32,000 nucleotides of DNA from Pyrobaculum calidifontis JCM 11548 (GTDB taxonomy: Archaea; Thermoproteota; Thermoprotei; Thermoproteales; Thermoproteaceae). Position 1 is the stretch's first letter. Each line of letters begins with the position of its first letter. The notes beneath the pieces were generated by a model, which was not told the origin of the DNA, ran no database searches, and saw nothing but the letters and a program-made list of their open reading frames with translations. The position numbers and the translations under genes are program-made. This document shows, piece after piece, positions 3,229-30,663 of this stretch. The stretch spans positions 150,001 to 182,000 of the forward strand of contig NC_009073.1 of assembly GCF_000015805.1 (NCBI RefSeq), read 5' to 3'.

Positions 3229-4056
3229 GAGGTAGCGGTAGACTGTGCCCCAAATCTTGTCGTCGTCGCGTATCTTGTTTTCAAAGTTCTCATAGCCCGC
3301 CCAGTCCCTAAACGCCTCCTCTGTGGCCTCGTCCCAGACGCCGGTCACCTCGCCCCTGTAGAAGCCTAGCTTTTTCAAAGCCCTCTGCACCTCCGCCGCC
3401 ACATCTCTCTTTGACACAACGTCGCTGGGGTCCTCCCTTTGCAGTAGAGTGAGCTCCCAAATGTGGAAGATTCTCTTCAGCTCTTCCACCGGGTTTGGGT
3501 GGTCGTCTACCCTAATGTCCACGTAGGTGTCTGACAAGCCGAGGTATCCCCCGCCGGGCCTGAGCACAAGCAAAGCGGCTGACTGCCTCCCTCTGCGGTC
3601 TCCGCCGGCCCTGTCCCCAGCCTCTAGAGCCGCCAAGAGCTTGTCCACCAGCTCCCCCCTCTTTGTCTCAAAGGCCTTGGCCATGGCCTCCAACACCTCG
3701 GGCCCCGCCAGTATGTTCCCCAGCGCCGCGTATCCGTTGCCCACGATGTGCCCAGCGTAGTACGGACACTTGCCCCCAGTGTGGACGTACGCCTCGCCTC
3801 TGGCGTTGACTACCCCGACCTGCCTGATCTCCCTCTCGGCGTCTTGCGCCAAGGCCTTTTCCAACGCCTCCCTCGGGGAGCGGTGTTGGAGGAGCGCGAG
3901 TATTACTCTCCCAAGCCTGGGGTTTGCATAACACTGCGTGGCCACGGCGCCTACGCCGGCCTCTGCGTGCGGCACCACGGCACCCACTGCGACGAATTTA
4001 GACGCCACAGCCACGCCTACGTCGACGCCGTCGCTTGCCACTATGGAGAAGGTCAC
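3208..4056 (-). CDS. DUF1028-family (Ntn-hydrolase-like) protein with a C-terminal peptidoglycan-binding-like repeat
   Basis: MTFSIVA...[33 protein letters not shown] is the typical DUF1028 N-terminus (Thr/Ser after Met). The C-terminal [30 protein letters not shown] matches the PG_binding_1-type helical repeat. Confidence 0.72.
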
Positions 4057-4092
4057 ACTGATTTATTGATTTATAGGGGATATAAAGATAAC

Positions 4093-4902
4093 ATGGAGCT
4101 GAGAAAAGGCGTAAGGCTGTTGAGGGGTTCTCCCAACACCTTGGTGGTTGGGGAATACGTCGTAGACCCCGGCCAGCCGGCGGAGAGGGCGGCTGAGGTG
4201 TTGCAGGCGGCGGGCCCCGCGCCTAAGGTGTTGCTCACCCACTTCCACGCAGACCACCTCACCGCGGTGCCCCCAGGCGCCGAGGTCTACGCGCCCTGGG
4301 GCGAAGAGCTCTTCGTGGCCAGCGTCCGGGCGAGGCTCTTCTTCACCCACGGCGTTTATGTAAACAACGCGGTGTACAAGGGCGGAGATATAAAGGTGTC
4401 CGGCGTGGTGAAAGACGGCGAGAGGGTAGGCCCCTTCGAGGTAGTGTCTCTGCCCGGCCACACTTTTGGCCACGTGGGGTACTACGTAGAGGGGGTGCTG
4501 TACGCCGGCGACGCGTTGTTTGGGGAAAAGGTGCTCGAGAAATACGGCGCGCCCTACCTCATGGACGTAGACGCCTTTCTAGCCTCCTTGGACAAGATAA
4601 TGGCGCTTGAGCCAGAGGTCTTGGTGATGGGCCACGGCCCCGTGGTAGGTAGCCGGAAGAGGGCGGCGGAGCTGATTGAGGCAAATAGGCGCTACGTGGA
4701 AAGGGCTGTGGAGGCCGTGGCCAAGCTGTTGCCCGGCGACTTGACTAAGCTGGCCGTGGGCTTGTTGAAGGAGGTGGGTGGGGAGAGGGGGTGGGAAAAT
4801 GTGCTACTGACGATGACCACGGTTAGGGCTATCTTGTCTAAGCTGTCTAGCGAGGGGCGTGTTTACTTAGATGAAGAGGGCACTTGGAGGAGTAATCTAT
4901 AA
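4093..4902 (+). CDS. MBL-fold metallo-hydrolase
   Basis: Internal ATG at 4093 (MELRKGVRLLRG...) of track ORF 3748-4902; the upstream part is antisense to the DUF1028 gene. Motifs [18 protein letters not shown] and GDALF are present. Confidence 0.75.
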   Translation: MELRKGVRLLRGSPNTLVVGEYVVDPGQPAERAAEVLQAAGPAPKVLLTHFHADHLTAVPPGAEVYAPWGEELFVASVRARLFFTHGVYVNNAVYKGGDIKVSGVVKDGERVGPFEVVSLPGHTFGHVGYYVEGVLYAGDALFGEKVLEKYGAPYLMDVDAFLASLDKIMALEPEVLVMGHGPVVGSRKRAAELIEANRRYVERAVEAVAKLLPGDLTKLAVGLLKEVGGERGWENVLLTMTTVRAILSKLSSEGRVYLDEEGTWRSNL

Positions 4903-5020
4903 TTATAGATAATTATAAATTTTGCCTGTATAAAAATAGAAGCTTCTCTAAACTTTCTTAGCTTCATTTCTCTATATTTTTCTATAGAAACATTTAAAAA
5001 CATGCTATATTGTACTCTCT

Positions 5021-7759
5021 ATGGGTAAGTATGTGTACAGCTTCAAAGAGGCCGACTATCGGAATAAGAAGCTGTTCGGCGGTAAGGGGGCCAGCTTGAT
5101 TCAAATGAGCCAGCTCGGCCTCCGCGTGCCGCCCGGCTTCATTATAACCACCGAGGCGTGTAAGAAGTTCTACGAGCCTAGGCGAGAGGAAATCGCCGAG
5201 CTGGAGGCAGCCCTTCTGAAAAACCCGCCGCCGGAGGTGAGAGACCAAGTCATCGAAAAACTCCACAAGGTTATAGACAGCCTTGAGTTGCCTCAGGAGA
5301 TTTGGAGAGAGGCCGTGGAGTACATGAAGAGGCTTGAGGAAGAGACTGGGAGAAAATTTGGCGATCCTAATGCGCCGCTTTTAGTGTCTGTGAGAAGCGG
5401 CGCCGCGGTCTCCATGCCAGGGATGATGGACACGGTACTCAACTTGGGCCTAAACGACGAGACTGTGAAAGGTCTCGCAAAGTGGTCGGGCAACGAGTGG
5501 TTTGCCTACGACGCCTACCGGAGGTTTTTGCAGATGTTCGGCAAAATTGTCCTCTCCATAGACGAGAAGCTCTTCTCCTCGGCGTGGGAAGAGATTAAGC
5601 GCAAGTATGGGGCAAAGGAGGACCCGGAGGTCCCCTTGGAGGGGCTCAAAGAGGCGGTGGAGAGGTTTAAGCAGATAATTCTCAGAGAGAGGGGCGGCTT
5701 CCCGCAGGACCCGTGGGAGCAGTTGAGGCTGGCTATAAAGGCGGTGTTTAAGTCGTGGATGAGCCCCCGCGCCATTTTCTACAGGATAATTGAGAAAATA
5801 ACCCCCGACGTGGCGGACTGCACCGCCGTCAACGTGGTGACAATGGTCTTTGGCAACGTGGGGTGGGACTCCGGCACGGGGGTCGTGTTCAGCAGAGATG
5901 TGGCCACCGGCGAGAATAAGCTGTATGGAGAATTCTTACCAGTGGCACAGGGAGAGGACGTGGTGGCTGGCATAAGGACTCCCATGGACATCGAGGAGTT
6001 TAGGAAGAGGTTCCCGCACCTATACGACGAGCTTTACAGGGGGGTGAAGTTGCTTGAGCGCGTCAACAAGGACGTCCAAGACGTGGAGTTCACAGTGGAG
6101 AAAGGCGTCTTGTACTTCCTCCAGGCTAGAAACGCCAAGATGACGGCGTTGGCCAGGGTAAAGACGGCTGTGGACATGGCCAAGGAGGGGATTATAACTA
6201 GGGAGGAGGCCATCCTCTACGTTAAGCCGGACCACGTCCTCCAGCTCTTATACCCGCGCATAGACCCCAAGGCCAAGGCAAAGCCGGTGGCCCAGGGCCT
6301 CCCCGCCAGCCCAGGCGCAGTGTCTGGGCAAGTGGTCTTCCACCCCGACGATGCAGTGCGGTGGGCGGCTGAGGGGAAGCGGGTGATATTGGCTAGGGTG
6401 GAGACTAAGCCCGACGACGTGCACGGCTTCTACGCCGCGGTGGGCATTCTCACGAGCAGAGGCGGGATGACTAGCCACGCCGCGGTGGTGGCGAGGGCAA
6501 TTGGGAAGCCCGCGGTGGTCGGGGCAGAGAGCGTAGAGATACACGAGGAGGAGAAGTACCTCAAGATAGGCGACATAGTGGTCAAGGAGGGGGAGTGGAT
6601 AACCATCGACGGGCACACGGGCAACGTCTACATAGGTGTCGTGCCCACGATAGAGGCCGAGCTGATCCCAGAGCTCGAGGAGCTTCTGAGCTGGGCTGAC
6701 CAAGTGCGGAGGCTCGGCGTTAGAGCAAACGCCGATTTGCCCGACGACGCGGCCATAGCGAGGAAGTTTGGGGCAGAGGGCATCGGCTTGTTGAGAATTG
6801 AGAGAATGTTTAGAAAGCCTGAGAGACTTGAGCTACTCCGGAGGATAATTCTCGCGGAGAGCGCCGAGGAGAGGAGGCCATACTTAGAGAAGTTGTACAA
6901 GGCGTTGAAGGAGGACTTTAAGGAGGTGTTCCGCATAATGGACGGCCTGCCCGTAATTGTGAGACTGATAGACCCGCCGCTCCACGAGTTTCTGCCAAAG
7001 CCCGAGGAAGTGCTGGAGCAGATTTACCAGAGGAAGATGCGCGGTGAAGACGCCTCGGAGCTCGAGAAGTTGTACAAACGCGTAAAGGCGTTGCAGGAGG
7101 CTAACCCAATGCTCGGCCACAGAGGCGTGCGGGTCGGCGTCACGCACCCCGACTTCTACTACTACTTAAACAGGGCCATTCTAGAGGCCGCGGCGGAGCT
7201 GAAGAAGGCCGGGCACAACCCCGTCGTGGAGATCATGATACCGCAGGTGGCAGACGCGAGAGAGATAGTGTTTGTAAAAGAGAAGAGCATAATACCTGCG
7301 CTTAGAGACGTGGAGAAGGAATTCGGCGTGTCTCTCAACGTGAAAATAGGCACAATGGTGGAGACTGTGCGCGCCGCGTTGACCATAGACGAAATAGCCA
7401 AGCATGTGGACTTCATAAGCTTCGGCACCAACGACTTGACGCAGGCCGTGTTTAGCTTCAGCCGCGACGACGCTGAGAACAAGTTCATACCGCAGTACCT
7501 AGAGCTAGAGATACTAGACGCAAACCCCTTTGAGACGCTGGACGTCAAGGGAGTTGGAAAACTAGTAGAATACGCAGCTGCCACAGCCAAGGAGGTGAAC
7601 CCCTCCATAGAGGTGGGAGTATGCGGCGAACACGGCGGAGACCTCAAGTCCATCTACTTCTTCCACAAGACCAAGGTTGACTACGTAAGCGCGTCGCCGT
7701 TTAGAGTGCCTCTGGCGAGACTAGCCGCCGCCCAGGCCGCAATACTGCAGAGCAAATAA
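5021..7759 (+). CDS. ppdK: Pyruvate, phosphate dikinase
   Basis: 912 aa with all three PPDK modules: N-terminal ATP-grasp (GGKGASLIQM), central phosphohistidine swivel domain (GGMTSHAAVVARAIGKPAVVG) and C-terminal PEP/pyruvate TIM barrel (FGTNDLTQ, CGEHGGD). Preceded by an unusually A/T-rich 118-bp intergenic region. Confidence 0.97.
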   Translation: MGKYVYSFKEADYRNKKLFGGKGASLIQMSQLGLRVPPGFIITTEACKKFYEPRREEIAELEAALLKNPPPEVRDQVIEKLHKVIDSLELPQEIWREAVEYMKRLEEETGRKFGDPNAPLLVSVRSGAAVSMPGMMDTVLNLGLNDETVKGLAKWSGNEWFAYDAYRRFLQMFGKIVLSIDEKLFSSAWEEIKRKYGAKEDPEVPLEGLKEAVERFKQIILRERGGFPQDPWEQLRLAIKAVFKSWMSPRAIFYRIIEKITPDVADCTAVNVVTMVFGNVGWDSGTGVVFSRDVATGENKLYGEFLPVAQGEDVVAGIRTPMDIEEFRKRFPHLYDELYRGVKLLERVNKDVQDVEFTVEKGVLYFLQARNAKMTALARVKTAVDMAKEGIITREEAILYVKPDHVLQLLYPRIDPKAKAKPVAQGLPASPGAVSGQVVFHPDDAVRWAAEGKRVILARVETKPDDVHGFYAAVGILTSRGGMTSHAAVVARAIGKPAVVGAESVEIHEEEKYLKIGDIVVKEGEWITIDGHTGNVYIGVVPTIEAELIPELEELLSWADQVRRLGVRANADLPDDAAIARKFGAEGIGLLRIERMFRKPERLELLRRIILAESAEERRPYLEKLYKALKEDFKEVFRIMDGLPVIVRLIDPPLHEFLPKPEEVLEQIYQRKMRGEDASELEKLYKRVKALQEANPMLGHRGVRVGVTHPDFYYYLNRAILEAAAELKKAGHNPVVEIMIPQVADAREIVFVKEKSIIPALRDVEKEFGVSLNVKIGTMVETVRAALTIDEIAKHVDFISFGTNDLTQAVFSFSRDDAENKFIPQYLELEILDANPFETLDVKGVGKLVEYAAATAKEVNPSIEVGVCGEHGGDLKSIYFFHKTKVDYVSASPFRVPLARLAAAQAAILQSK

Positions 7760-7803
7760 CGCACTTACGAAAACGGTTTTAAAACCACGCCAATTTTATA
7801 CAC

Positions 7804-7944
7804 ATGTGGACGAAGCTTAAGAACTTCATAACTGGGGTCTGCCTACTCCTAGCGCCGTACCTCGACGTCTGCAAATTCGGCGCGCCTAAGGCGCAGAGCG
7901 GAGTCAAAGAGACGCGCGAGACCCGCTGCACCAAGATCAAGTAA
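7804..7944 (+). CDS. Small hypothetical protein (46 aa)
   Basis: Not in the track (<60 aa). ATG is about 24 nt after GGTTTTAAAACC. Translation is MWTKLKNFITGVCLLLAPYLDVCKFGAPKAQSGVKETRETRCTKIK. Its TAA overlaps the next gene's ATG (TAATG at 7942-7946), suggesting translational coupling. Confidence 0.35.
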   Translation: MWTKLKNFITGVCLLLAPYLDVCKFGAPKAQSGVKETRETRCTKIK

Positions 7945-8210
7945 TGCTAAATTTTATTGAGACATTCCACCGAGAGGTAGCCAAGAGACTCGACGCAGTG
8001 GACTCGGCAGGCGAGGCCGCGGGGCTAATGGAGTGGGCAAACGGCAGAGTGGGGAAATGCGACGTGTACTTCCTCTGGTTTCCAGCCACCAAGAGGCTCG
8101 TATACGCCGTAAAATGCCCCGCGGGGCTGAGGGAGGGGGAGGTGGAGGCGAAAAGCCACGTCGAGGCAGTTGCACACGTGGAGAAGATAATCGCAAGCCT
8201 TAGGAAATGA
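7944..8210 (+). CDS. Hypothetical protein (88 aa)
   Basis: The ORF has host-like codon usage. It is linked by start/stop overlaps to both neighbours (TAATG upstream, ATGA at 8207-8210 downstream). I recognise no motif. Confidence 0.55.
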   Translation: MLNFIETFHREVAKRLDAVDSAGEAAGLMEWANGRVGKCDVYFLWFPATKRLVYAVKCPAGLREGEVEAKSHVEAVAHVEKIIASLRK

Positions 8211-8905
8211 GAGTCGCCGTCCTCTACACAGGCGGCAAAGACAGCCACTACGCCCTGCTAAAGGCGTTGGAGGAGGGGCACGAAGCCGCCTGTCTCATCA
8301 TCGCGCTCCCCCGCCGCGCCGACTCCTACATGTTCCACACAGTGAACATAAGGTGGAGCTTAATACACGGCGATGCCATGGGCATACCTCACTTCGCGGT
8401 AGAGGTAAGTGGGGAAAAGGAGAGGGAAGTGGAGGAACTCGGCGAATTGCTTGCCCAGTTGCGCAGAGACTGCCGATTTGACGCATTGGTCTCAGGCGCC
8501 GTGGCGTCCCGCTACCAGAAGGAGAGAGTAGACAAGTTGGCCAAGCTCCTGGGCGTCCGCCACCTGGCCCCCCACTGGGGGAGAGACCAAGAGGAGCTCC
8601 TGCGGGAAGAGGCGGCCCACATGCGGTTCATAATCACAGCCGCCATGGCCATGGGCCTGGGGCCCCAGTGGCTGGGGAGAGCCGTCACGCCCGACGCAGC
8701 CGAGGAGCTAATCGCCCTCAGCCGGCGGTACGGCTTCTCGCCCGTCGGCGAGGGAGGCGAATACGAGACGTACGTTGTGGAAAGCCCCCTACTCCGGGTG
8801 GAGGTAAGCGGCACGGCGCACTGGCACCCCAGCGGGTGGGGGTACTACGAGATAAAAGAGGCAAAGGCGGTGAGGAGAGAGATTCGCAGTAGCCACGCTC
8901 CATAG
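8207..8905 (+). CDS. PP-loop ATP pyrophosphatase of the MJ0570 / diphthine-ammonia ligase (DPH6-like) family
   Basis: N-terminal MRVAVLYTGGKDSHYALLKA is the SGGKDS PP-loop. The C-terminal GEGGEYETYVV block is typical of this family. Confidence 0.8.
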   Translation: MRVAVLYTGGKDSHYALLKALEEGHEAACLIIALPRRADSYMFHTVNIRWSLIHGDAMGIPHFAVEVSGEKEREVEELGELLAQLRRDCRFDALVSGAVASRYQKERVDKLAKLLGVRHLAPHWGRDQEELLREEAAHMRFIITAAMAMGLGPQWLGRAVTPDAAEELIALSRRYGFSPVGEGGEYETYVVESPLLRVEVSGTAHWHPSGWGYYEIKEAKAVRREIRSSHAP

Positions 8906-8949
8906 AAACTTCTCAGTAAGTTGTTTTGGCACCGGCGCCGCGTCTGCCT

Positions 8950-8964
8950 AAAGCCTTTGCTCTC
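8950..8964. repeat. Left copy of the 13/15-nt direct repeat bracketing the first PaREP2-like gene
   Basis: AAAGCCTTTGCTCTC here versus AACGGCTTTGCTCTC at 10821-10835. The core CTTTGCTCTC is identical (8955-8964 and 10826-10835). Confidence 0.45.
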
Positions 8965-10820
8965 TTCGGTTTGTTACTTTCAGCGAGGTCCCCCTACAAA
9001 GTTATAAACAGCGACTTTTTAATGCCGCGGAGCGGCAGAGATATGTCGCCGTCTAAAGTAGCTGGAGACGGCTGGGACGAGCTCTGCCGACACCTGCGGA
9101 ATATCCACCATCGCTACATGGAACTTGCTAGGTTTCATAGCGAGAGGTGCAACTTCCCTGGGGCCCATTGTAAGCGGCCGTGGGGCAGGGAGTACACAGA
9201 GGATGATCTGAAGCTGATGTGGAAGTACATAGAGTACACAGAGCCTCTGTGTTGCAAACTGATGAAAGGGCTGGCGGGGGTAGAGTATAGGATAAGAGAG
9301 CTTGGGATAGAGAGCCTTAAGAGACATGGTGGCTTAGTCAAAAGGTCGGTGGCGCACAGCGAGATTACAAAGTGGCACCTAAATAAGCCGGTGCTTGTTT
9401 ATCTAACGCTATTGGACACGGAGATGCGTGTCACGTGGAGAGAACTTGACGAGACGTCGCTACGGAGTCAGCAGAAGGAGTTTATGCAATTTGTGGATGG
9501 GGCTCATGGTGCCAGGGATACGAGGGTGGGAGTCTTCGATATAGATGTGGACTACAAGAGACTGTGGCTTGAGATACCGCTAGTAGAGCCGGTATCGCGC
9601 ATGTTGGGCCAGAGAGATAGGGCGCCTGTGGCGTTGTTTAGAAACTTGGGCTGGTTGCTCAGTGACGATAGACGAGGTAGCTTGAAGCATAGTGCCAGTA
9701 ATCCTGGCCAAATTGCCTTACGGCTTTTTGACTGGATTGCCTTGGCGAAATACGCCATTGAAGTATTGAACTTATCCCCTAATAAGCCTCTGGTATTTAA
9801 GCTGGCGGTCCGCCAAGCCACAAAGACTGTGATGAGCATAAGCCCTACAGTGGAAATGTGGCCGGTCGGCACAGCGGCTGAGGTCATTAGGGGTCTCTAT
9901 AAGTGGTTTGGAATTACGCTGGGCAGAACGGAGGGAGTGCTCGTGCGGGGCTACGCCGTGCTAAAGGCGTTGAGGGAGGCGGCGTTTAAAAGGAATGGCA
10001 GAGTGTACGTGGTTGACGACGCCGGCGCTTGGATTGCCTTCAGCAACGCCGTGGGGACGCTCGTGCTGGGGGATGGCAATATGTATAGGACAGAGCTGAG
10101 AATTGCGGCAAAAACTACGCCGAAGAAGACGTTTAAGGGGGAGACTTCTCTGGCGAGTGAACTAGCCGAGGCTGTAAAAGGTATTCTCGCGGGGCCATTT
10201 ATACGTCTCAGGCCGTGGCACATGCGTCTCCTACTGCCTATTGCGCCGAGCCCTGCGTTTGGGAAAGCTTTGAATCTTTACACGTCGCTGGCTAGAAACC
10301 CTGTAGCGGCCCTTGTTGAACTAGGTAATGCTAAATATCTACTTTACCGTTATGATAACAGATTTGGGGTAAAAGGCGTAACAGCTGTCGAATTGTACGA
10401 AACGTTGAAGAAATTAGATATAGAGGTAAAGCTAAGGGGCAACGCGGTCAAATTTACGCCAAAACAGCTAGAGGAATTAGCGCAGAGAGGTGTCTCCGTA
10501 CGGTTTTTAGACGAGATAGAAAAGGTGGCGGCCAGAGAGATGATCAGGAGGTTAGAGAAGGCTAAGAAGAGGGCTGGCAGGGCGATGAAGCCGCAACTCG
10601 ATGTCGAGTCTGTTAGGCGTGTGTTAGTAGAGATGGCAAAGATCGCCAGAATCATTGTAGCACAGTACAAGCGCGGAGAGTACATCAGGATAATTCCCCA
10701 TGATAAGACAAAGGCGTGCGAAATAAAGGCTATGCTTTTGTCTGTGGGCATAAGGAGTTCGCTATTACGGCATAAAGGAGAGGTGAGGGTATATGAAAAG
10801 AGATCCCTAGAAATAATCAA
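8965..10820 (+). mobile_element. Candidate single-gene cassette (PaREP2-like gene with its own TATA box) between direct repeats
   Basis: Bracketed by the 13/15 direct repeat. Contains TTATAAA (9002-9008) and the whole conserved part of the gene. Codon usage is visibly more A/T-ending than in neighbouring genes, especially in the 3' third. The similarity I could trace to the second copy stops at 10818. Mobility is inferred, not shown. Confidence 0.3.
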
Positions 10821-10866
10821 AACGGCTTTGCTCTCCATAAAGGCTGAAGCCCCGGCCGGGATTTGA
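9043..10866 (+). CDS. Large conserved hypothetical protein, PaREP2-like multi-copy family (paralog 1), with two LAGLIDADG-like motifs
   Basis: Alignable over its full length with 28359-30191; roughly half the positions are identical in the blocks I aligned by eye (e.g. FRNLGWLLSDD, RLFDWIALA, DWFGITLG, GAWIAFSNAV, WHMRLLLP, IRIIPHDK). ATG at 9043 is chosen because both paralogs then begin about 25-26 aa before the shared ELARF block, and TTATAAA at 9002-9008 predicts a TSS near 9030. The track's TTG at 8926 and ATG at 9022 are less likely. The stop TGA (10864-10866) lies inside the antisense tRNA-Cys. Confidence 0.8.
   Translation: MSPSKVAGDGWDELCRHLRNIHHRYMELARFHSERCNFPGAHCKRPWGREYTEDDLKLMWKYIEYTEPLCCKLMKGLAGVEYRIRELGIESLKRHGGLVKRSVAHSEITKWHLNKPVLVYLTLLDTEMRVTWRELDETSLRSQQKEFMQFVDGAHGARDTRVGVFDIDVDYKRLWLEIPLVEPVSRMLGQRDRAPVALFRNLGWLLSDDRRGSLKHSASNPGQIALRLFDWIALAKYAIEVLNLSPNKPLVFKLAVRQATKTVMSISPTVEMWPVGTAAEVIRGLYKWFGITLGRTEGVLVRGYAVLKALREAAFKRNGRVYVVDDAGAWIAFSNAVGTLVLGDGNMYRTELRIAAKTTPKKTFKGETSLASELAEAVKGILAGPFIRLRPWHMRLLLPIAPSPAFGKALNLYTSLARNPVAALVELGNAKYLLYRYDNRFGVKGVTAVELYETLKKLDIEVKLRGNAVKFTPKQLEELAQRGVSVRFLDEIEKVAAREMIRRLEKAKKRAGRAMKPQLDVESVRRVLVEMAKIARIIVAQYKRGEYIRIIPHDKTKACEIKAMLLSVGIRSSLLRHKGEVRVYEKRSLEIIKTALLSIKAEAPAGI
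10821..10835. repeat. Right copy of the 13/15-nt direct repeat
   Basis: AACGGCTTTGCTCTC begins 3 nt after the last nucleotide of the block shared with the second paralog (GAAATAATC, 10810-10818). Confidence 0.45.
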
Positions 10867-10958
10867 ACCCGGGACTTCCGCGCCGGCGGCTCTACGGGTC
10901 TGCAGCCCGCCGCTCTAGTCGGATAATTAGCCCTCTAACCACGCTGAGCTACCGGGGC
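10848..10958 (-). tRNA. tRNA-Cys (anticodon GCA) with two non-canonical introns
   Basis: Minus strand: GCCCCGG TA GCTC AGCGTGGTTA [GAGGGCTAATTATCCGACTA] GAGC G GCGGG CTGCAGA CCCGT AG[AGCCGCCGGCGCGGAA]GTC CCGGG TTCAAAT CCCGG CCGGGGC T. After removing a 20-nt D-arm insert (10916-10935) and a 16-nt variable-region insert (10876-10891), the cloverleaf is complete. TATA-like AAATTTAAAAATT lies upstream. No CCA is encoded. Intron borders are ambiguous by a few nt. Confidence 0.78.
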
Positions 10959-11184
10959 TATCTCTTTTCCTTCCTCAATTTTTAAATTTACTGCCGCGTT
11001 TCCCTAGGTTACAGGTAGCCGCCTTTAGGAGACCGGCACCATGTGTTACGTCTAGTGGAGGCAAGCCTTAGAGTCTGGCCGCTCTCGTTGTTCGCCGAGC
11101 CTCAGTGGTCATGTCATCTCTATTTTATTGCATGCCTCGATGCGAGCGAACGACTTGCGCTCTTCTGCGCGCAGTATTGGAAAA

Positions 11185-13056
11185 TTACTGCCGTCCTATT
11201 GCCTTTTTGATCTCTTCTACGGCGGTGGGGTTTTCGAGAGCTGAGAGGTCGCCTGGGCTTTTTCCCAGGAGAATTGCCCTTATTACCCTCCTCATGATTT
11301 TGGCGTTTCTAGTCTTGGGGAGCTCTTTCACGAAGTATATCTCCTCCAAGGCGCCGTACGCCTTGCCAAGCGCCTTCTCCGCCAGCGCTGCCAGCTCTCT
11401 TTTAAGCTCTTCGCTTGGCTGAAAGCCCTGCTTTAACACTACGAAGGCCACTGGCACCTCGCCCTTGAGCGGGTCGGGCTTGCCCACCACAGCCGACTCG
11501 GCCACTGCGGGGTGGGAGTTAAGCACGCCCTCCACCTCGGCGGGGCCTAGGCGCTTCCCAGCCACCTTGAGCGTGTCGTCTGCCCTGCCCACGATGTAGA
11601 AGTAGCCGTCTTCGTCTACCACAGCCGCGTCGCCGTGCGCCCACACCCCCGGCCACTTGGACCAGTACGTCTCTAAATACCGCTGGGGGTCCCTCCAGAA
11701 GCCCCTAGTCATGCCAGGCCAAACGGACAGCACCACCAGCTCTCCCTCAACCCCCGGCGGCGCCGGCTTTCCGTCTTCTGTAAACACGGCGGCTTTTGTC
11801 CCCGGCGAGGGGCCGTTGAAGGATGTGGGCTTTATGGGCTTTACCACGTAGCACCCCAGTATGCCTCCGGAGATCTCTGTGCCGCCTGAGTAGTTTATTA
11901 TGGGCGCCCTCCCCCTCCCGGCCTTGTGCAGCCACCACCAGCTCTCGGCGTCTATGGGCTCCCCAGTGTTGCCGAATGCCTTCAGCTCGCCCGCCCCTTC
12001 CCCAGGCTCTGCCCCAATTGTGCGGAGGTGTCTTGTGAGCGTGGCGGCCATGCCGAGCACCTTTACCTTAAACCGCTCTACGAACTTCCACACCCTGTCT
12101 TTGGGGTAGTCGGGGGCTCCCTCGAAGAAGGCCATGGAGCCCCTCAGCAGATACGCCGAGAAGACGAGCCACGGCCCCATCATCCACCCCATGTCTGTGA
12201 CCCAGGTGAGGGTCTCCCCCCTCTTGAGGTCGAAGTGGAAGTAGACGTCGGCGGCGGCCTTTATGGGGAACCCCCCGTGGACGTGCACTGTGGCCTTGGG
12301 CTTCCCAGTGGTGCCCGAGGTGTATATGAGCATCATGGGGTCCTCCGCCTCGGTGACCTCCACGTAGTCTCCGCCTGTGCGAAAGACCTCGCCCAAGTCT
12401 ACGTAGTCCTTCCTCTCCCTGGCCCTCGCGTGGAGCACCACGGCCTCCACAGACTTGGCCAACCCGGCCTCCAGCTCGGCCAACATGTCCACCTCCCTCC
12501 CCCTCCTATACGACACATCTGAGGCAAAGACGAAGCGGGCCTCGCTGTCCTCAAGCCTAATTCTAATGGCCTCTCTGCCGAAGCCGCTGAAAAGCGGCAC
12601 AAAAATCCCCCCAGCCCTAATGATGCCGAGCATCACAGGCACAATTTCGGGCACCATGGGCATGTAGACGGCCACTCTATCCCCCTTTCTAAGCCCCGCC
12701 CTCTTCAGCCAAGAGGCCACTGCCCTTGCCTTGTAGAGCACGTAGGAGTAAGACCACTCGGCCGCCGAACCGTCTTCCCCCTCCCACTTCACCAGCGGCT
12801 GGGCGGACTCCTCCACCTGGTCGCCGATGTTTAAAAATCCTCCCACAAACCAGCGAGGCCACTGAACACCGCGGGAGAGGTCCAGTACTTTCTCATAACG
12901 CCTGGCCCACCTCAGCCCCAGGACGTGCGACTCAAACCAAGACCAGAAGTCCCCCGTGTAGGTATATTCCAGGAATTTCTCAAGCGGCTCCCCCCTCTCC
13001 GCCAGAGTCTTAGCCACGTTGGACTCCTCCAAGTGCTCTCTTTCGGGCTTCCACAT
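11185..13056 (-). CDS. AMP-forming acetyl-CoA/acyl-CoA synthetase
   Basis: 623 aa with the adenylation motif LIYTSGTTGKPKATVH, GEPI...WWW, YSGGTEISG, a GD...DEDGYFYIVGRADD hinge and the C-terminal LPKTRNAKIMRR lysine motif. Confidence 0.9.
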   Translation of the reverse strand: MWKPEREHLEESNVAKTLAERGEPLEKFLEYTYTGDFWSWFESHVLGLRWARRYEKVLDLSRGVQWPRWFVGGFLNIGDQVEESAQPLVKWEGEDGSAAEWSYSYVLYKARAVASWLKRAGLRKGDRVAVYMPMVPEIVPVMLGIIRAGGIFVPLFSGFGREAIRIRLEDSEARFVFASDVSYRRGREVDMLAELEAGLAKSVEAVVLHARARERKDYVDLGEVFRTGGDYVEVTEAEDPMMLIYTSGTTGKPKATVHVHGGFPIKAAADVYFHFDLKRGETLTWVTDMGWMMGPWLVFSAYLLRGSMAFFEGAPDYPKDRVWKFVERFKVKVLGMAATLTRHLRTIGAEPGEGAGELKAFGNTGEPIDAESWWWLHKAGRGRAPIINYSGGTEISGGILGCYVVKPIKPTSFNGPSPGTKAAVFTEDGKPAPPGVEGELVVLSVWPGMTRGFWRDPQRYLETYWSKWPGVWAHGDAAVVDEDGYFYIVGRADDTLKVAGKRLGPAEVEGVLNSHPAVAESAVVGKPDPLKGEVPVAFVVLKQGFQPSEELKRELAALAEKALGKAYGALEEIYFVKELPKTRNAKIMRRVIRAILLGKSPGDLSALENPTAVEEIKKAIGRQ

Positions 13057-18603: not shown

Positions 18604-18716
18604 TGGAGCCCCGGCCGGGATTCGAACCCGGGACCTCCCGCTGTCTCGGCAGAGTGCCTACGAGGCGGGCGCTTTGGCCCAGCTGACGCTGTCCGACCGG
18701 GCTGAGCTACCGGGGC
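18604..18716 (-). tRNA. tRNA-Thr (anticodon CGT) with a D-arm intron and a canonical 37/38 intron; CCA encoded
   Basis: Minus strand: GCCCCGG TA GCTC AGCCCGGTC G[GACAGCGTCAGCTGGGCCAA]AGC G CCCGC CTCGTA[GGCACTCTGCCGAGAC]A GCGGG AGGTC CCGGG TTCGAAT CCCGG CCGGGGC T CCA. Introns are at 18674-18693 and 18643-18658. TATA-like AAAATTTATTAAG lies about 25-30 nt upstream. Confidence 0.78.
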
Positions 18717-18842
18717 CTGGGCAGTGGTACTACGCTCTTAATAAATTTTTCCGCATAAAAGCCGGGGAACCGCCTTTCATCGGCCCGCACATCTGCGGCA
18801 CTCCGGCGGCACTCAAGAGAATAAGCAGACGCGTTAAAATAT

Positions 18843-26910: not shown

Positions 26911-27438
26911 TCAGAGACAGACCCTGGCCGTTGGAAGGACGAAGGGGCCGATCCGCTCGTAGCGGCCCTGCAGATACGCCAGCGCCGTCAGCGCCGCCGC
27001 CGCGGCGTCCACCAAGTCCCCGTGCCCAACCCCCAGCCACTCAGCCACGCGGCGCCGGGAGAGGCCCATGGCCCTCAAGCTGGTCAGCGGGTGGACCTCC
27101 ACCACCTCAGCCCCAAGCGCCTGGCTCAGCCTAATGCCCCGCTCAGTCAACAGCCTCATAGGCCCCATAAGCGGCGGCAGAAGCTTGTACCCCCTCCTCC
27201 TCAGCTCCACCTCAACGTCCCGGAGCCCCCTGCCCCCCTCCGGGAGCGAAAGCGGCGCATCTATCGCCACAACCCTCGGCCGCGCCAGAGAGGCCACGCG
27301 CAGGACCTCCCCATCGCCCCCCGCCAGCCCCATGTAAAACACCTCGCACCCCCTCAGAGCCACCACCGCGGTGGGCCTCCTCACCGCCAAGTCGATGCCA
27401 ACGACAGCCACGTTTAAAATTGCTGTCAATTTAAACAT
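26911..27438 (-). CDS. RNase H-fold predicted nuclease-like protein (DUF429/COG2410-like)
   Basis: VVGIDLA...VVAIDAPLSLPEG...RDVEVELRRRGYKLLPP...MRLLTERGIRL...VEVHP follows the pattern I associate with DUF429-type RNase H-like proteins. Assignment is by motif pattern only. Confidence 0.55.
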   Translation of the reverse strand: MFKLTAILNVAVVGIDLAVRRPTAVVALRGCEVFYMGLAGGDGEVLRVASLARPRVVAIDAPLSLPEGGRGLRDVEVELRRRGYKLLPPLMGPMRLLTERGIRLSQALGAEVVEVHPLTSLRAMGLSRRRVAEWLGVGHGDLVDAAAAALTALAYLQGRYERIGPFVLPTARVCL

Positions 27439-28170
27439 ATGCCCACAGCCGTTGTGACCGGGGGCTCCACGGGAATAGGCGCGGCCACGGTAAAGGCCCT
27501 GGCCAAGGCGGGCTACAACGTGGCCTTCACCTACCTACGCAACAGAGACAAGGCGGAGGAGGTGACCAGAGAGGCGGCGTCCCACGGAGTGAGAGTAATC
27601 CACCGCGCCGCCGACGCCACCTCCTGGGAGGAGATGGCACAATTCGCCGAAGAGGTCAAAAGGCAGTTCGGCAGAGTAGACGCCCTCGTCGCCAACGCAG
27701 GCGGCCTGCCAGAAAGGCGCACCCTCGACGAGTCAGCCCTAGACTACTGGCGCCGCGTAGTAGACCTAAACCTCACCAGCGCCTACATAGCCACAAAGCT
27801 CTTCACCCCCCTCATGGAGAAAGGCGTCGTGATATACGTCAGCTCAGTCGCCGCCTACACCGGCGGAGGAAGAGGCGCCTTCGCCTACGCCGCGGCAAAG
27901 GCTGGGTTGCTCGGCCTCACCAGGGCACTCGCAAAAGAGCTCGGCCCCAGAGGCATCAGAGTAGTTGCAGTCCTCCCCGGCCTAATAGACACCCCATTCC
28001 ACCAAAAGGCAGGGACGGGAGACATCCACGCCTGGGCCGCCAACGCGGTGTACCTAAGGAGGGTTGGGACGCCTGAGGAGGTGGCAGAGGTAATAGCCTT
28101 CCTAGCCAGCGAAAAAGCCTCCTACATAAACGGCGCCTTCATAGACGTCAACGGAGGCTGGTACGGGTAA
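27439..28170 (+). CDS. Short-chain dehydrogenase/reductase (FabG-like 3-oxoacyl reductase family)
   Basis: TGGSTGIGAA cofactor loop, the NAGG motif (VANAGG), the catalytic S...YAAAKAG triad region and a PG.I.T motif. Confidence 0.92.
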   Translation: MPTAVVTGGSTGIGAATVKALAKAGYNVAFTYLRNRDKAEEVTREAASHGVRVIHRAADATSWEEMAQFAEEVKRQFGRVDALVANAGGLPERRTLDESALDYWRRVVDLNLTSAYIATKLFTPLMEKGVVIYVSSVAAYTGGGRGAFAYAAAKAGLLGLTRALAKELGPRGIRVVAVLPGLIDTPFHQKAGTGDIHAWAANAVYLRRVGTPEEVAEVIAFLASEKASYINGAFIDVNGGWYG

Positions 28171-28201
28171 AAACTTATAAAACACGGAAAACGAAAGCAC
28201 A

Positions 28202-28311
28202 GCCCCGGTAGTATAGCCCGGACTAGTATGCGGGCCTGACGACATAGTCGGGCCAATCGAGCCCGTGACCCGGGTTCAAAAGGGGGACCCCGGAGAATCC
28301 CGGCCGGGGCG
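28202..28311 (+). tRNA. tRNA-Val (anticodon GAC) with a canonical 37/38 intron and a T-loop intron
   Basis: GCCCCGG TA GTAT AGCCCGGACTA GTAT G CGGGC CTGACG[ACATAGTCGGGCCAATCG]A GCCCG TGAC CCGGG TTCAAA[AGGGGGACCCCGGAGAA]T CCCGG CCGGGGC G. Introns are at 28242-28259 and 28281-28297 (borders +/-1-2 nt). No CCA is encoded. Confidence 0.75.
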
Positions 28312-28358
28312 TGGGGCACCCATATTATTATCAATCTTCCATTTATAATTGAGAGTTT

Positions 28359-30191
28359 TTAGTTTTTTGTAAATGGTGATGCCAAAATTGTTTGATAATG
28401 AATCAGCAAAAGAGCTTTGTGTAGAGGAATGTAAAGTGGGTGAAAAAAGTGGGGGGCTATCCTACGGATTATTTCTACCGACTTTTGTTCGTGTATTCTT
28501 ACCTCCTTTTTCTTGTGTAGTATTGTGGCTCTTATCCCCACTGCCCTTAGCTTGGCCGCTATTTCTTCCACCTTAGACTTGTCGTGTGGAATTATCCTGA
28601 TGTAGAGCCGGCCTCTGTCTGTAGCCGCCACTATTCTCGCCATTTTGGCCACTTCCTCTAACACCCGCCTAACGGCGTCTAAGTCGGGCGTCGGCAACGC
28701 TGGCCTAACTTCTCTCACCGCATCTTTCTCCATGTCGTTGAGGAATCTGACGGTGAAGCCACGCCTCGCCAGCTCCTCAAGCTGGGCGTAGGTGAGTAAC
28801 AACAAGTTCCTCTTGAACCTCTCCTTTATCCCAAGCCGCTCTAGGGCGTTATACAGCTCTACGGCCCTCCCCCTTCCAATCACGAACTCGCCACCGCCAT
28901 TATGTGTAAGCAGATATGTAATGCCGTTGACCTCTACTATAGCGGCCGCTGGGTAGTTTGCCAGCGTCTCAAATAGCCTGGCCGTCTTCTCCAAGGCCGG
29001 CGTAGGCTGAGTTGGCAAAAGCAGGCGCATGTGCCATGTCTGTAGTCTTACGTAGTCTCCGGCGGTTGTTCCGCCGACAGCATCGGCGAGCTCCTCCAGC
29101 AGACTCGTCTCTCCTGCCAGCGTGGCCCTGGGCGTCGTCTTAACGGCTATCCTCACCTCATACGGCAACACGTAGCCGTCGCCGACGACCAACATGTCGA
29201 CCGCGTTGCTAAAGGCAATCCACGCCCCCACATTGCTTACGACGTACATTCTTCCGTCGAGCTTAAACGCATCCTCTCTCAACGCCTTCAACGCGGAGTA
29301 GCCCCGCATTAGCACCTCCTCTGTACTTCCCAACGTTATTCCAAACCAGTCGTAGGCGACAAATAGCGCTTCGTAGGTAGCGCCTGTGGGCCACGCCTCA
29401 ACTGTGGGATTGTCGCCGTGCCTTGTCTTAGTCACCTTGCGAATTCTCAGCGTAAACGCCAGGGGCGCCTTTGGCGTAATCCCCCTCTCCATAGCGTACT
29501 CTGCTAGGGCAATCCAGTCGAACAGTCTCACCGCAACTTGGCCAGGATTACCAGCGGCATGTCCAAGGTTTTTACGCCAATCGTCACTCAACAGCCAGCC
29601 CAAATTCCTAAACAGCACAATCGGTGTCTTGTCTCTTCCGCCCAGTAGTTTAGACGCAGACTTCGGTAGCGGCACCTCAAGCCACAGCCGCTTGTACTCC
29701 TCGTCCACCTCATACGTCTCTACGGGGACGCCAGCCCGCCCAGTCTTCCTCGCCGTTTCTTCCAGCTCCTCCCCCCTCAGCCCATTGCCTATGGGCACAT
29801 CGTCGTAGAAGATGTACAATCTCTTCTCCCACAGCACTATCGTGGCGTATACTGGCTTCTTGAGGTACAGCGTCACTATCTCGTGGTCTGGCCTTGATTT
29901 GTCCGGCCTCGTCACTCCCACTCTATAGCCCTTTTCCAGTCCCTTAATCCCCAGCTCCCGGAACTTACACTCGGCCTCCGCCAGCGCCTTGATGAGATTG
30001 CCGCACAGCGACGCCGTGTCCTCAATGTACTGCCACATCAGCCGTATATCGGCTTCGGCGTAGCCGCACGCGCGGCCGGGGAGGCGGCACTTTCCACTCC
30101 TAAACCTTGCCAACTCGACATAGCGCCTGTACCCCTCCAGCTGGCGTTGACACTCCATTTCCCATATTCCTGGTTCACTTTTGCAAGCCAT
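28359..30191 (-). CDS. Large conserved hypothetical protein, PaREP2-like multi-copy family (paralog 2), with two LAGLIDADG-like motifs
   Basis: Collinear with 9043-10866. ATG at 30191 (MACKSEPGIWEMECQ...) aligns with MSPSKVAGDGWDELC... of paralog 1; the track's start at 30227 is TTG. The last ~31 aa (PHFFHPLYIPLHKALLLIHYQTILASPFTKN) have no counterpart in paralog 1 and look like read-through into flanking DNA. Confidence 0.8.
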   Translation of the reverse strand: MACKSEPGIWEMECQRQLEGYRRYVELARFRSGKCRLPGRACGYAEADIRLMWQYIEDTASLCGNLIKALAEAECKFRELGIKGLEKGYRVGVTRPDKSRPDHEIVTLYLKKPVYATIVLWEKRLYIFYDDVPIGNGLRGEELEETARKTGRAGVPVETYEVDEEYKRLWLEVPLPKSASKLLGGRDKTPIVLFRNLGWLLSDDWRKNLGHAAGNPGQVAVRLFDWIALAEYAMERGITPKAPLAFTLRIRKVTKTRHGDNPTVEAWPTGATYEALFVAYDWFGITLGSTEEVLMRGYSALKALREDAFKLDGRMYVVSNVGAWIAFSNAVDMLVVGDGYVLPYEVRIAVKTTPRATLAGETSLLEELADAVGGTTAGDYVRLQTWHMRLLLPTQPTPALEKTARLFETLANYPAAAIVEVNGITYLLTHNGGGEFVIGRGRAVELYNALERLGIKERFKRNLLLLTYAQLEELARRGFTVRFLNDMEKDAVREVRPALPTPDLDAVRRVLEEVAKMARIVAATDRGRLYIRIIPHDKSKVEEIAAKLRAVGIRATILHKKKEVRIHEQKSVEIIRRIAPHFFHPLYIPLHKALLLIHYQTILASPFTKN

Positions 30192-30490
30192 GCCCCGTCC
30201 AACACACCCCCCATGTTGAACAAACAAAGGCGCACCTCCACTCGGCGCTATCTAAGCGTCTCTGCGCTATGTGTACTTCGTCGCCACCTCAGCCACTTGC
30301 TGGACAGTGCTGTGCCGGACTCCAGCCCTACGAGGTACACCCTCCGTGTGGGAAGCGCCGCGGTGCGCTACTTCCCAGCGGCTAAGGTGGCCATAATCTT
30401 CGCCAAGACGCCCAGCGAGGCAGAGGCCGTAGCCGCGCTGTGTAAGCCACCATAATTCATCCAGAGTAATCCCATATATTGAATATTTTG

Positions 30491-30510
30491 CCTACTTGCA
30501 CGCAAGTAGG
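30491..30510. repeat. Palindrome 1: CCTACTTGC-ac-GCAAGTAGG
   Basis: Perfect 9-bp arms with a 2-nt centre. Confidence 0.9.
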
Positions 30511-30551
30511 GCGGTGTTGCTATGTCGTTTTTACGCGCCGTCGCCCCCTTC

Positions 30552-30574
30552 GCCTACTTGCATCGCAAGTAGGC
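30552..30574. repeat. Palindrome 2: GCCTACTTGC-atc-GCAAGTAGGC
   Basis: Perfect 10-bp arms with a 3-nt centre, using the same half-site as palindrome 1. Confidence 0.9.
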
Positions 30575-30605
30575 AAGGCGCCTCCCCCACCAAGAAAAAC
30601 GGCGA

Positions 30606-30625
30606 CCTACTTGCAAACAAGTAGG
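30606..30625. repeat. Palindrome 3: CCTACTTG-caaa-CAAGTAGG
   Basis: Perfect 8-bp arms with a 4-nt centre, using the same half-site. Confidence 0.9.
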
Positions 30626-30663
30626 CAACTCGTTCAATATAAGGGGGTTGGGCCTGGCGGGCC

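Follow-up and report, generated by a model that had tools for sequence, protein, structure and literature searches.

Two paralogous genes in a 32,000-nt stretch of the Pyrobaculum calidifontis JCM 11548 genome (hereafter the window) belong to a single clade, seven copies of which were located; each is convergent with a tRNA gene and lies 0–150 nt from its 3' end, and at least six tRNA species are involved. The clade is part of a narrow, Pyrobaculum-restricted, multi-copy family of proteins of about 600 amino acids, with many paralogs per genome and per metagenome and a very narrow taxonomic range (79 representatives among 1.84 billion proteins). The explanation that we consider probable is a single-gene selfish element with a preference for tRNA 3' flanks, the mechanism of which we infer.

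Results

Both tRNAs that face a family gene in the window are real tRNAs with multiple introns. tRNA-Cys(GCA) lies on the reverse strand at 10849–10958 (discriminator at 10848, acceptor 3' end at 10849), carries introns in the D-loop and in the variable region, gives a full-length tRNA-clan match when cmscan is applied to a small region, and has exons identical to those of tRNA-Cys in three relatives (L028–L030). tRNA-Val(GAC), on the forward strand at 28202–28311 with its discriminator G at 28311, has an intron in the anticodon region and another in the T loop, and is called by ARAGORN once the T-loop intron has been removed. The third tRNA, tRNA-Thr(CGT) (18608–18716, reverse strand, CCA encoded), has the acceptor and T-arm sequence of the other two; as an earlier, sequence-only reading of the window had noted, it shares their 3' sequence and has no family gene beside it, its 3' neighbor being a conserved thioesterase-like gene, and it serves as a negative control locus. 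None of the three was found by Rfam at gathering thresholds or by default ARAGORN, which misses them because their introns are non-canonical; the calls were made with small-region cmscan, a custom acceptor/T-arm scanner and ARAGORN after intron removal.

Paralog 1 occupies positions 9043–10866 of the forward strand (607 aa from ATG 9043; the mechanical ORF, 8926–10866, opens at TTG 8926) and is 100% identical to the 607-aa protein P0001. It runs tail-to-tail into tRNA-Cys, with which it overlaps by 19 nt (10848–10866): the codons A-P-A-G-I and the stop (10849–10866) lie antisense over the T arm, the acceptor stem and the discriminator, and the TGA falls inside the antisense T loop. The earlier proposal that the tRNA dictates the final codons of the gene is borne out by the sequence for these five codons and the stop. 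The conserved family core of paralog 1 ends at about 10839; in the AlphaFold model the last helix ends at residue 602 (codon 10846–10848), and residues 604–607 are disordered (pLDDT < 50). Between the dph6 stop at 8905 and the tRNA 3' end at 10848, the insert consists of the family gene alone.

Paralog 2, on the reverse strand at 28359–30191 (610 aa from ATG 30191; mechanical ORF 28359–30227 from TTG 30227), converges on the forward-strand tRNA-Val(GAC), in agreement with the earlier description. Its conserved part had been said to end at 28467, but the tblastn alignment reaches 28443, where the core approximately ends. The spacer between tRNA-Val and the core (28312–28442, reverse strand) includes the non-conserved ORF tail with its stop codon at 28359–28361. 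It opens with a pseudo-copy of the tRNA 3' end, TGGGGCACCCA (28312–28322), and contains TTTACATTCCTCTACACAAAGC (28414–28435, reverse strand), which matches at 17 of 22 positions the inner end of a ~225-nt repeat of other family members and occupies the position equivalent to that end, just 3' of the core. The spacer is weakly similar to that at tRNAi-Met (z 4.2) and, in a shuffle test, to the ~225-nt repeat (z 2.2), to which the Leu spacer showed no similarity in the same test; our visual impression that every spacer derives from this repeat was thus only partly upheld. A synteny breakpoint relative to a closely related contig (L004) lies at the 5' end of paralog 2 (30228–30236, about 30232): the region 27000–30232 is wholly common to the window and L004, nothing beyond 30232 is collinear, and the 5' half of the gene is 67–90% identical to its counterpart, compared with 97–100% for the 3' half and flanks.

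The sequence-only reading had placed a discrete cassette end next to the tRNA 3' ends, with its boundary at the string GAAATAATC. The adjacency to tRNA 3' ends holds at seven loci and at least six tRNA species, all of them convergent; the boundary does not. As reported, GAAATAATC is present at 10810–10818 on the forward strand, where it encodes E590-I591-I592 of paralog 1 in the middle of the C-terminal helix, and its reverse complement is at 28467–28475, where the E-I-I codons of paralog 2 are read from the reverse strand. Similarity had been thought to stop after this string, but the homology within the family is 7–8 codons longer: tblastn alignments with a P. calidifontis homologue as query reach 10839 and 28443, the conserved core in an alignment of 30 sequences extends some 8–10 residues past GAAATAATC, and residues 586–602 of the paralog 1 model (KRSLEIIKTALLSIKAE) form one helix. 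A cassette boundary at GAAATAATC is wrong; the string is internal to the protein's last helix.

Beyond the window, tRNA-adjacent copies were located at tRNAi-Met (L019/L020), at tRNA-Leu (L003, with an Rfam score of 53 bits for the tRNA, and L037), at tRNA-Val (L040) and at two tRNAs of ambiguous anticodon identity, Tyr or Thr in L002 and Phe or Glu in L039; the related loci derive mostly from a single metagenome assembly and short contigs. The tRNA-adjacent copies group together in the NJ tree. By our own estimate, which assumes about 46 tRNAs and about 2,600 genes, some 1% of genes would be expected to have a convergent tRNA as 3' neighbor, and against this chance expectation per gene a single clade sits at six independent tRNA loci. 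The clade to which the window copies belong is associated with tRNAs. Its placement beside different tRNAs is repeated and orientation-specific and is accompanied by empty sites, a feature of tRNA-flank-targeting elements, which suggests that the clade may target tRNA 3' flanks. Scans of genome contigs and viral contigs found no relative.

A search for empty sites at the orthologous tRNA-Cys and tRNA-Val loci, as the sequence-only reading had advised, found the gene absent in relatives. In three Pyrobaculum MAGs dph6 is followed directly by tRNA-Cys, without a family gene; tRNA-Val stands without one at L043, and at L045 there is no tRNA-Val beside the SDR gene. In both empty-site comparisons the tRNA has the opposite orientation to that in the window, and simple insertion therefore does not describe the difference between the filled and empty states; neither a target-site duplication nor an exact insertion junction could be defined, and no event of transposition or homing was seen. 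In related strains, orthologues are found at the same tRNA (Val in the window, L004 and L040; Cys in the window, L001 and L041). A relative that is 94% identical in nucleotide sequence carries a frameshifted copy, and frameshifted or truncated copies occur at L041, L019, L015, L016 and L018; the dN/dS of about 0.41 is based on only 31 differences. An exact-protein look-up with the window SDR returned 100% identical contigs only, hence no strain polymorphism. The family is probably mobile, and we take the frameshifted copy, this dN/dS and the synteny break with mosaic identity at paralog 2 as signs of selfish behavior. What follows tRNA-Cys on its 3' side varies among L028, L029 and L030; in L030 this region holds CbiA and T2SSE genes and is probably an integrated element.

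No integrase or other element gene adjoins either window copy. The window neighbors scanned with Pfam are PPDK, dph6, an acyl-CoA synthetase, an acyl-CoA dehydrogenase and the SDR, and no integrase domain is listed among the called neighbors in L031–L045. The exact 14-nt tRNA 3' end occurs in the window only in the three tRNAs themselves, and neither exact search nor self-BLAST of the window revealed a second tRNA 3'-half copy beyond the gene. Pseudo-copies of the tRNA 3' terminus do exist just downstream of tRNA-Val (GGGGCACCCA), of tRNAi-Met (CCCCCGCTTCCA) and of a tRNA-Gly in L039, in tandem with the tRNA and not flanking the family gene. The classical integrase-type element implied by the earlier reading has no support: an integrase and a flanking duplication of the tRNA 3' half are missing, and the insert at the Cys locus is one gene.

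Fourteen copies of the other family type carry the ~225-nt repeat (the P. calidifontis copy is L025), with nhmmer E-values ranging from about 1e-10, for partial copies at contig ends, to 1e-71, and none of the 14 has a tRNA in the flanks examined. The repeat is present as an inverted pair in L005, L015, L016 and L025, and the inverted-repeat form is a unit of about 2.45 kb; at L025, the ends of which are located approximately and not to the base, a TSD is not evident. At the flanks of the window copies, nhmmer --max detected no ~225-nt repeat, and these copies thus have no terminal inverted repeats of this kind. Three identities of the repeat were rejected: the 3' end of a convergent gene (a long ORF is absent), a CRISPR leader or repeat (each copy stands alone, its flank is conserved and it bears little resemblance to a CRISPR repeat) and a structured RNA (RNAalifold energy of about −10 kcal/mol, almost no covariation on either strand and no Rfam hit).

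The family protein has no family match in sequence and profile searches of Pfam, NCBIfam, PHROG and PDB, and no transposase domain (DDE, HUH and similar) was found in it with any domain library. The PaREP2-like label given to it earlier is not supported: hmmscan of both paralogs and P0013 gave no Pfam match even at E ≤ 10, and 30 family members gave no PaRep match at E ≤ 1. Among 104 homologues, the only one with a precomputed Pfam domain is a chimeric fragment. The protein is conserved along its full length and its AlphaFold model has a pLDDT of 88, a domain-only model being poor (pLDDT 53). In Foldseek searches of two libraries, LAGLIDADG/DOD homing endonucleases appear repeatedly among the best hits, which are weak (E ≥ 0.015). 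Matches to LAGLIDADG_3, all under the 22.5-bit cut-off, occur in five family members (P0264, E 0.004; P0244, 0.04; P0254, 0.08; and two of 30 aligned members, E ≥ 0.2), and Pfam LAGLIDADG_1/2/3 gave nothing above the gathering score. Two invariant acidic motifs, LGWLLSDD (D208/D209) and LxLGDG (D344-G345), end helices 196–205 and 327–344, respectively, and in the alignment and the AlphaFold model each is followed by a beta hairpin; against I-CreI LAGFVDGDGSII, hhalign aligned 12 columns only of the second motif, with a probability of 0.4%. We consider it probable that the family protein consists of LAGLIDADG-like modules that contain conserved acidic residues, which makes it plausible that it is a DNA endonuclease whose putative nuclease activity drives the spread of the family.

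Discussion

The family takes two forms, a unit bracketed by inverted repeats and a derived clade without recognizable repeats, every located copy of which is convergent with, and immediately 3' of, a tRNA gene. The derived clade may insert at, or be selectively retained at, the tRNA 3' flank, with the 3' side of the gene, in the form of a degenerate right-end spacer, abutting the tRNA terminus. Paralog 2 retains a spacer of 131 nt, and paralog 1 would have lost its own, so that its ORF enters the antisense of tRNA-Cys, uses the TGA in the T-loop complement and gains from this read-in a five-residue disordered tail. Family copies might also serve as dispersed repeats for recombination, which would account for the break in synteny at paralog 2 as well as for the mosaic 5' half of this gene.

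The same loci could have arisen without any self-targeting if, in Crenarchaeota, rearrangement and integration are generally concentrated at tRNA flanks, where a dispersed family ends up and survives and recombination between paralogs and tRNAs shuffles the copies. In two Staphylothermus species a synteny break adjoins 44% of tRNA ortholog pairs (PMC3218864), and this figure, together with the variable regions 3' of tRNA-Cys in L028, L029 and L030, the break and mosaic gene at paralog 2 and a tRNA orientation that varies between species at the Cys and Val loci, is consistent with such passive accumulation. We nevertheless judge it unlikely, as all seven loci share one convergent orientation and a close adjacency, the tRNA-adjacent copies are one clade whereas none of the 14 repeat-flanked copies has a tRNA in the examined flanks, and the insert at the Cys locus is nothing more than the family gene. 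We consider very improbable an ordinary, vertically inherited host gene with a functional reason for its tRNA adjacency, such as that of a tRNA-related enzyme or of a shared terminator; it would accommodate a well-folded protein conserved over its whole length, a dN/dS below 1 and the orthologues that remain at the same tRNA across related strains, but it is at odds with the absence of the gene from orthologous loci in other Pyrobaculum species, the many paralogs per genome or metagenome, the frameshifted and truncated copies, the inverted repeats that flank other copies and the very narrow taxonomic range.

The 3' halves of tRNA genes are the classical att sites of archaeal integrative elements, and the copies could be remnants of tyrosine-integrase elements that recombined with a tRNA 3' half, the family gene being the cargo nearest the attachment site. 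The tRNA 3'-terminus pseudo-copies at tRNA-Val, tRNAi-Met and the tRNA-Gly of L039 and the probable integrated element in L030 would agree with such an origin, which is made very improbable by the lack of an integrase or element gene beside the window copies and of a second tRNA 3' half beyond the gene, by the single-gene insert at the Cys locus and by the tandem arrangement of the pseudo-copies, which leaves the gene unflanked. Collaborative homing joins a free-standing HEG to a neighboring intron (phage psbA / F-CphI type); here, a LAGLIDADG-type endonuclease would cut intron-less tRNA genes near the T arm, and repair would co-convert the gene and a site-protecting T-loop intron. Four of six partner tRNAs (Val, Tyr/Thr, Phe/Glu and iMet) have similar T-loop introns at the same position, and these introns lie about 17 nt from the tRNA 3' end that faces the family gene; the fold evidence points to LAGLIDADG, and the mechanism of tRNA intron transposition in Thermoproteales is stated to be unknown (PMC4090602). 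This scenario is nonetheless very unlikely: tRNA-Cys and the tRNA-Leu partners have no T-loop intron, the tRNA-Arg(TCT) of L002 carries such an intron but faces the 5' end of the gene, the repeat-flanked copies are without tRNA and the nuclease fold is tentative. We regard as similarly unlikely its boldest form, in which a free-standing LAGLIDADG-like endonuclease would recognize the conserved tRNA T-arm and 3' end and the clade would home with the T-loop intron, as the DNA-level driver of large-scale tRNA intron 'transposition' and tRNA-gene rearrangement in Thermoproteales.

A single-gene selfish element at tRNA 3' flanks, the reading that we prefer, has partial parallels among known systems. 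Archaeal integrative elements of the SSV/pNOB8 type, with a tyrosine integrase, likewise represent foreign DNA by tRNA 3' ends, with empty sites in relatives and variable 3' regions; the family differs from them in having neither integrase nor flanking tRNA 3'-half duplicate, in an insert that can be a single gene of about 1.9 kb and in the use of at least six tRNAs by one clade. The flanks of tRNA genes are targeted by Tn7-like/type V-K CAST transposons in bacteria and by Ty3 and the Dictyostelium TRE elements in eukaryotes, which the family resembles in its orientation-specific placement beside many tRNAs and in the TIRs of related copies, whereas it comprises one uncharacterized protein and no homologues of TnsA/B/C/D, Cas12k, integrase or reverse transcriptase. 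Like free-standing LAGLIDADG HEGs, it would be a single selfish ORF beside a conserved target gene, and the protein's acidic-residue motifs and alpha-beta-beta-alpha-beta-beta-alpha secondary structure are reminiscent of LAGLIDADG enzymes, the fold assignment being weakly supported; the introns that several partner tRNAs have close to the family gene recall collaborative homing. The protein is, however, roughly three times the size of a typical LAGLIDADG enzyme and has additional modules at its N and C termini, and many family copies have long inverted repeats, with which we know of no homing endonuclease gene. The paREP families of Pyrobaculum, among which PaREP2b has been termed 'putative transposons' (PMC3558965), are similarly genus-specific, multi-copy, hard to assemble and tied to interspecies indels and rearrangements, but the present family has no Pfam PaRep2a/2b/PaREP1 match, and a tRNA association is described for none of the paREP families in the literature surveyed.

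Mobile DNA classically lands at tRNA genes, and the known archaeal elements do so by means of an integrase whose recombination involves the tRNA itself; in the present family, one integrase-free gene is found at six or more tRNAs in constant orientation. If its placement is targeted, it would represent a novel mode of tRNA-gene homing in Archaea and offer a handle on tRNA loci as rearrangement hot spots in Pyrobaculum. Should the protein be a nuclease that acts on tRNA genes, the unexplained spread of introns among the tRNAs of Thermoproteales would become open to experimental test. An overlap between a protein ORF and a tRNA gene such as that of paralog 1 and tRNA-Cys would escape annotation, because default tRNA finders miss such tRNAs.

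3' ends of the two family genes

Paralog 1, the family gene convergent with tRNA-Cys, occupies an open reading frame at 8926–10866 on the forward strand, probably starting at ATG 9043, and its 607-residue product is identical to the homologue P0001. The stop codon is the TGA within GGGATTTGAACCC, and the final codons, A-P-A-G-I and stop (10849–10866), are antisense to tRNA-Cys(GCA). This tRNA gene (10849–10958, reverse strand, discriminator at 10848) was recovered as a full-length tRNA-clan match by small-region cmscan and by a custom acceptor/T-arm scan, and its exons are identical to those of tRNA-Cys in three relatives. Paralog 2 (28359–30227, reverse strand) converges on tRNA-Val(GAC) (28202–28311, forward strand), its stop being separated from the tRNA by 47 nt. 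tRNA-Thr(CGT) (18608–18716, reverse strand) has no family neighbour, and all three tRNAs share the 14-nt 3' end ATCCCGGCCGGGGC.

The sequence-only reading described the convergence, the antisense-tRNA tail, the solitary tRNA-Thr and the 9-mer GAAATAATC in both genes accurately; its cassette boundary at that 9-mer was wrong, as these nucleotides are the E-I-I codons and homology extends further. The conserved core of a 30-sequence family alignment runs about 8–10 residues past E-I-I, as ..SVEAIRKxxPHFF, and a P. calidifontis family member was aligned by tblastn up to 10839 in paralog 1 and 28443 in paralog 2. In the AlphaFold model of paralog 1 (pLDDT 88, pTM 0.80), residues 586–602 (KRSLEIIKTALLSIKAE) form one terminal helix that ends exactly at the tRNA boundary, with C-terminal disorder limited to residues 604–607. 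Since core, tblastn alignment and helix all extend past the 9-mer, paralog 1 is a full-length family member whose short, unstructured tail is encoded by the antisense strand of the tRNA gene.

Default ARAGORN and Rfam at gathering thresholds detected none of the three tRNA genes (window 1–32000) because of their multiple non-canonical introns. With introns allowed, ARAGORN miscalled tRNA-Thr as Cys and predicted a 726-nt intron for tRNA-Cys; for tRNA-Val, which has introns in the anticodon region and T-loop, deleting the T-loop intron lets it call Val(GAC). The window reads as Pyrobaculum-like: Rfam recovers PyrR204, a Pyrobaculum H/ACA-like sRNA (18757–18814, reverse strand), at 72.7 bits, which exceeds the gathering score; the sRNA precedes tRNA-Thr by 41 nt and has its orientation. 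A cluster (30471–30645) lying 260–400 nt upstream of paralog 2, inside a 48-nt imperfect inverted repeat, consists of three palindromic hairpins of nearly identical sequence, CCTACTTGC-n2/3-GCAAGTAGG (30491–30510, 30552–30574 and 30606–30625), possibly operators or a small repeat element; hairpin-like motifs of similar kind precede the family copies in loci L039 and L040.

Repeat-flanked and tRNA-adjacent forms

The C-terminal tails of many homologues proved to be translations, in three frames, of one downstream DNA sequence, a repeat of ~225 nt with inner end TTTACATTTCTTTTGTCAAAGCGGCGCC and outer end AAATGGATATATAGAACTATATAG. It lies 3' of the family gene in 12 loci and, inverted, 5' of it in six, including a P. 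calidifontis copy (L025). There, a ~2.45-kb unit (3645–6091) consists of the 225-nt repeat (3645–3867), a leader of 134 nt that contains a promoter-like box, TTTTAAAA, a 1839-nt ORF (4001–5839) and the inverted repeat (5868–6091), the two arms being only ~70% alike. The unit's insertion point lies between trpC and a cation-efflux gene; the outer end of its repeat is palindromic, and three GTCAAA(A)GC motifs occur within the repeat. Coding as an ORF and folding as a structured RNA were both ruled out for the repeat. Solo repeats whose inner side has no family gene occur at L008 5586–5826, where the solo copy precedes a repeat-flanked gene in direct orientation, and at L023 876–1011; the repeat may also be an independent small element. 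It is absent from the window, where the sole trace is a 17/22 match to its inner end at 28414–28435.

All repeat-less copies with a readable 3' flank are convergent with a tRNA (L006 and L014 are left unclassified): tRNA-Cys (paralog 1, L001, L041), tRNA-Val (paralog 2, L004, L040), Tyr or Thr (L002), tRNAi-Met (L019/L020, gene truncated), Leu (L003, L037) and Phe or Glu (L039). Mapping family members to tRNAs, as the sequence-only reading had proposed, gave at least six tRNA species, and the tRNA-adjacent copies form one clade in a crude NJ tree. By our own estimate about 1% of genes would have a convergent tRNA neighbour by chance, so the association with six independent tRNA species in one clade is far beyond chance, in a sample drawn mostly from one assembly and from short contigs. 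L002 carries a second tRNA, tRNA-Arg(TCT), whose 3' end points at the family gene from the upstream side.

The spacers between core and tRNA are related to one another and to the ~225-nt repeat in part only: Tyr scores z 8.0 against the repeat and 7.6 against the Phe spacer, Val scores 4.2 against iMet and 2.2 against the repeat, and Leu is unrelated to the others or the repeat. Since the similarity is only partial, we infer rather than observe that the spacers would be a degenerate right end of the element.

The protein family

There are 104 close homologues, nearly all from hot-spring metagenomes and two in P. calidifontis; among 1.84 billion representative proteins, searched exhaustively with a profile, only 79 members were found. 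Even with the threshold relaxed to E<=10, Pfam gave no match, to its PaRep models or any other, so that the label PaREP2-like is not supported; NCBIfam, PHROGs and PDB sequences gave none either. Foldseek gave no significant match; among the non-significant hits at the top of its PDB and viral lists, homing endonucleases of the LAGLIDADG/DOD type turn up repeatedly, as do intein-bearing proteins. Five members have sub-threshold LAGLIDADG_3 matches, hhalign against I-CreI was not significant, and in alignment and model the invariant LGWLLSDD and LxLGDG motifs each end a helix followed by a beta hairpin. We regard a LAGLIDADG-like architecture as moderately probable.

Gene-free loci and rearrangement

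Empty sites, which the sequence-only reading proposed to look for, exist at both tRNAs, which are inverted there relative to the window. Three Pyrobaculum MAGs carry PPDK, dph6 and tRNA-Cys in order without the family gene and with varying DNA 3' of the tRNA; in the window the gene is the sole DNA from the dph6 stop (8905) to the tRNA-Cys 3' end. A P. arsenaticum MAG has an SDR gene and tRNA-Val without the family gene, and another species lacks tRNA-Val at this locus. L041 (94% nucleotide identity) has the window-like Cys arrangement with a frameshifted family gene; dN/dS is ~0.41 against a 98%-identical copy, from only 31 differences. Synteny with the close relative L004 breaks off at 30232, where paralog 2 has its 5' end; the 5' half of this gene is 67–90% identical to L004 (97–100% elsewhere). 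This mosaic and the break indicate recombination between paralogs.

On the 5' side of tRNA-Cys, an acyl-CoA synthetase-like gene (11185–13056, reverse strand) is missing in L041 (window ~11125–12908), a second indel at this locus. Directly 3' of tRNA-Cys in L030, a Pyrobaculum MAG, a run of small same-strand ORFs (6830–12500) with CbiA/ParA-like and T2SSE-type ATPases resembles an integrated plasmid or virus; this is the tRNA beside which paralog 1 stands in the window.

Origin of the tRNA association

The best-supported reading takes the family to be a selfish element made of one gene, with a clade that would have inserted, or been retained, at tRNA 3' flanks in fixed orientation; at paralog 1 the spacer would have been lost afterwards, the frame then running into tRNA-Cys. 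The insertion junction was not definable to the base in the loci compared. The sequence-only reading implied classical tRNA-targeting integrative elements, and the copies might be remnants of an integrase element, but neither an integrase beside the window copies nor a tRNA half-site flanking the gene was found, and that model is therefore unsupported. Other rivals to the selfish element are an ordinary host gene, passive accumulation of copies at rearrangement hot spots (PMC3218864), and collaborative homing with T-loop introns, which are present in four of the six partner tRNAs.

Those of tRNA-Val (28272–28296), Tyr/Thr (L002 7853–7878), iMet (L019 7617–7641) and Phe/Glu (L039 4312–4336) are similar in sequence (consensus roughly AGGGnnnnCCCyGAGA) and identical in position. 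The L002 tRNA-Arg(TCT) intron (5706–5728) shares the T-loop position with a different sequence, and in L030 tRNA-Cys an intron resembling these sits elsewhere in the T arm. Such likeness across different tRNAs fits the reported Thermoproteales 'intron transposition'; the mechanism by which such introns spread is stated to be unknown (PMC4090602). Some tRNAs are followed, 1–11 nt past the real 3' end, by a short pseudo-copy of that terminus, in many cases with CCA after it, at Val (window 28312–28322, GGGGC-G|T-GGGGCACCCA), iMet (L019 7595–7608, CCCCCGCT-A|CT-CCCCCGCTTCCA) and Gly (L039 ~4650–4662, CCCGGCCGCCGC-A..CCCGGCCGCCAC); earlier recombination events at the tRNA end may have left these traces.
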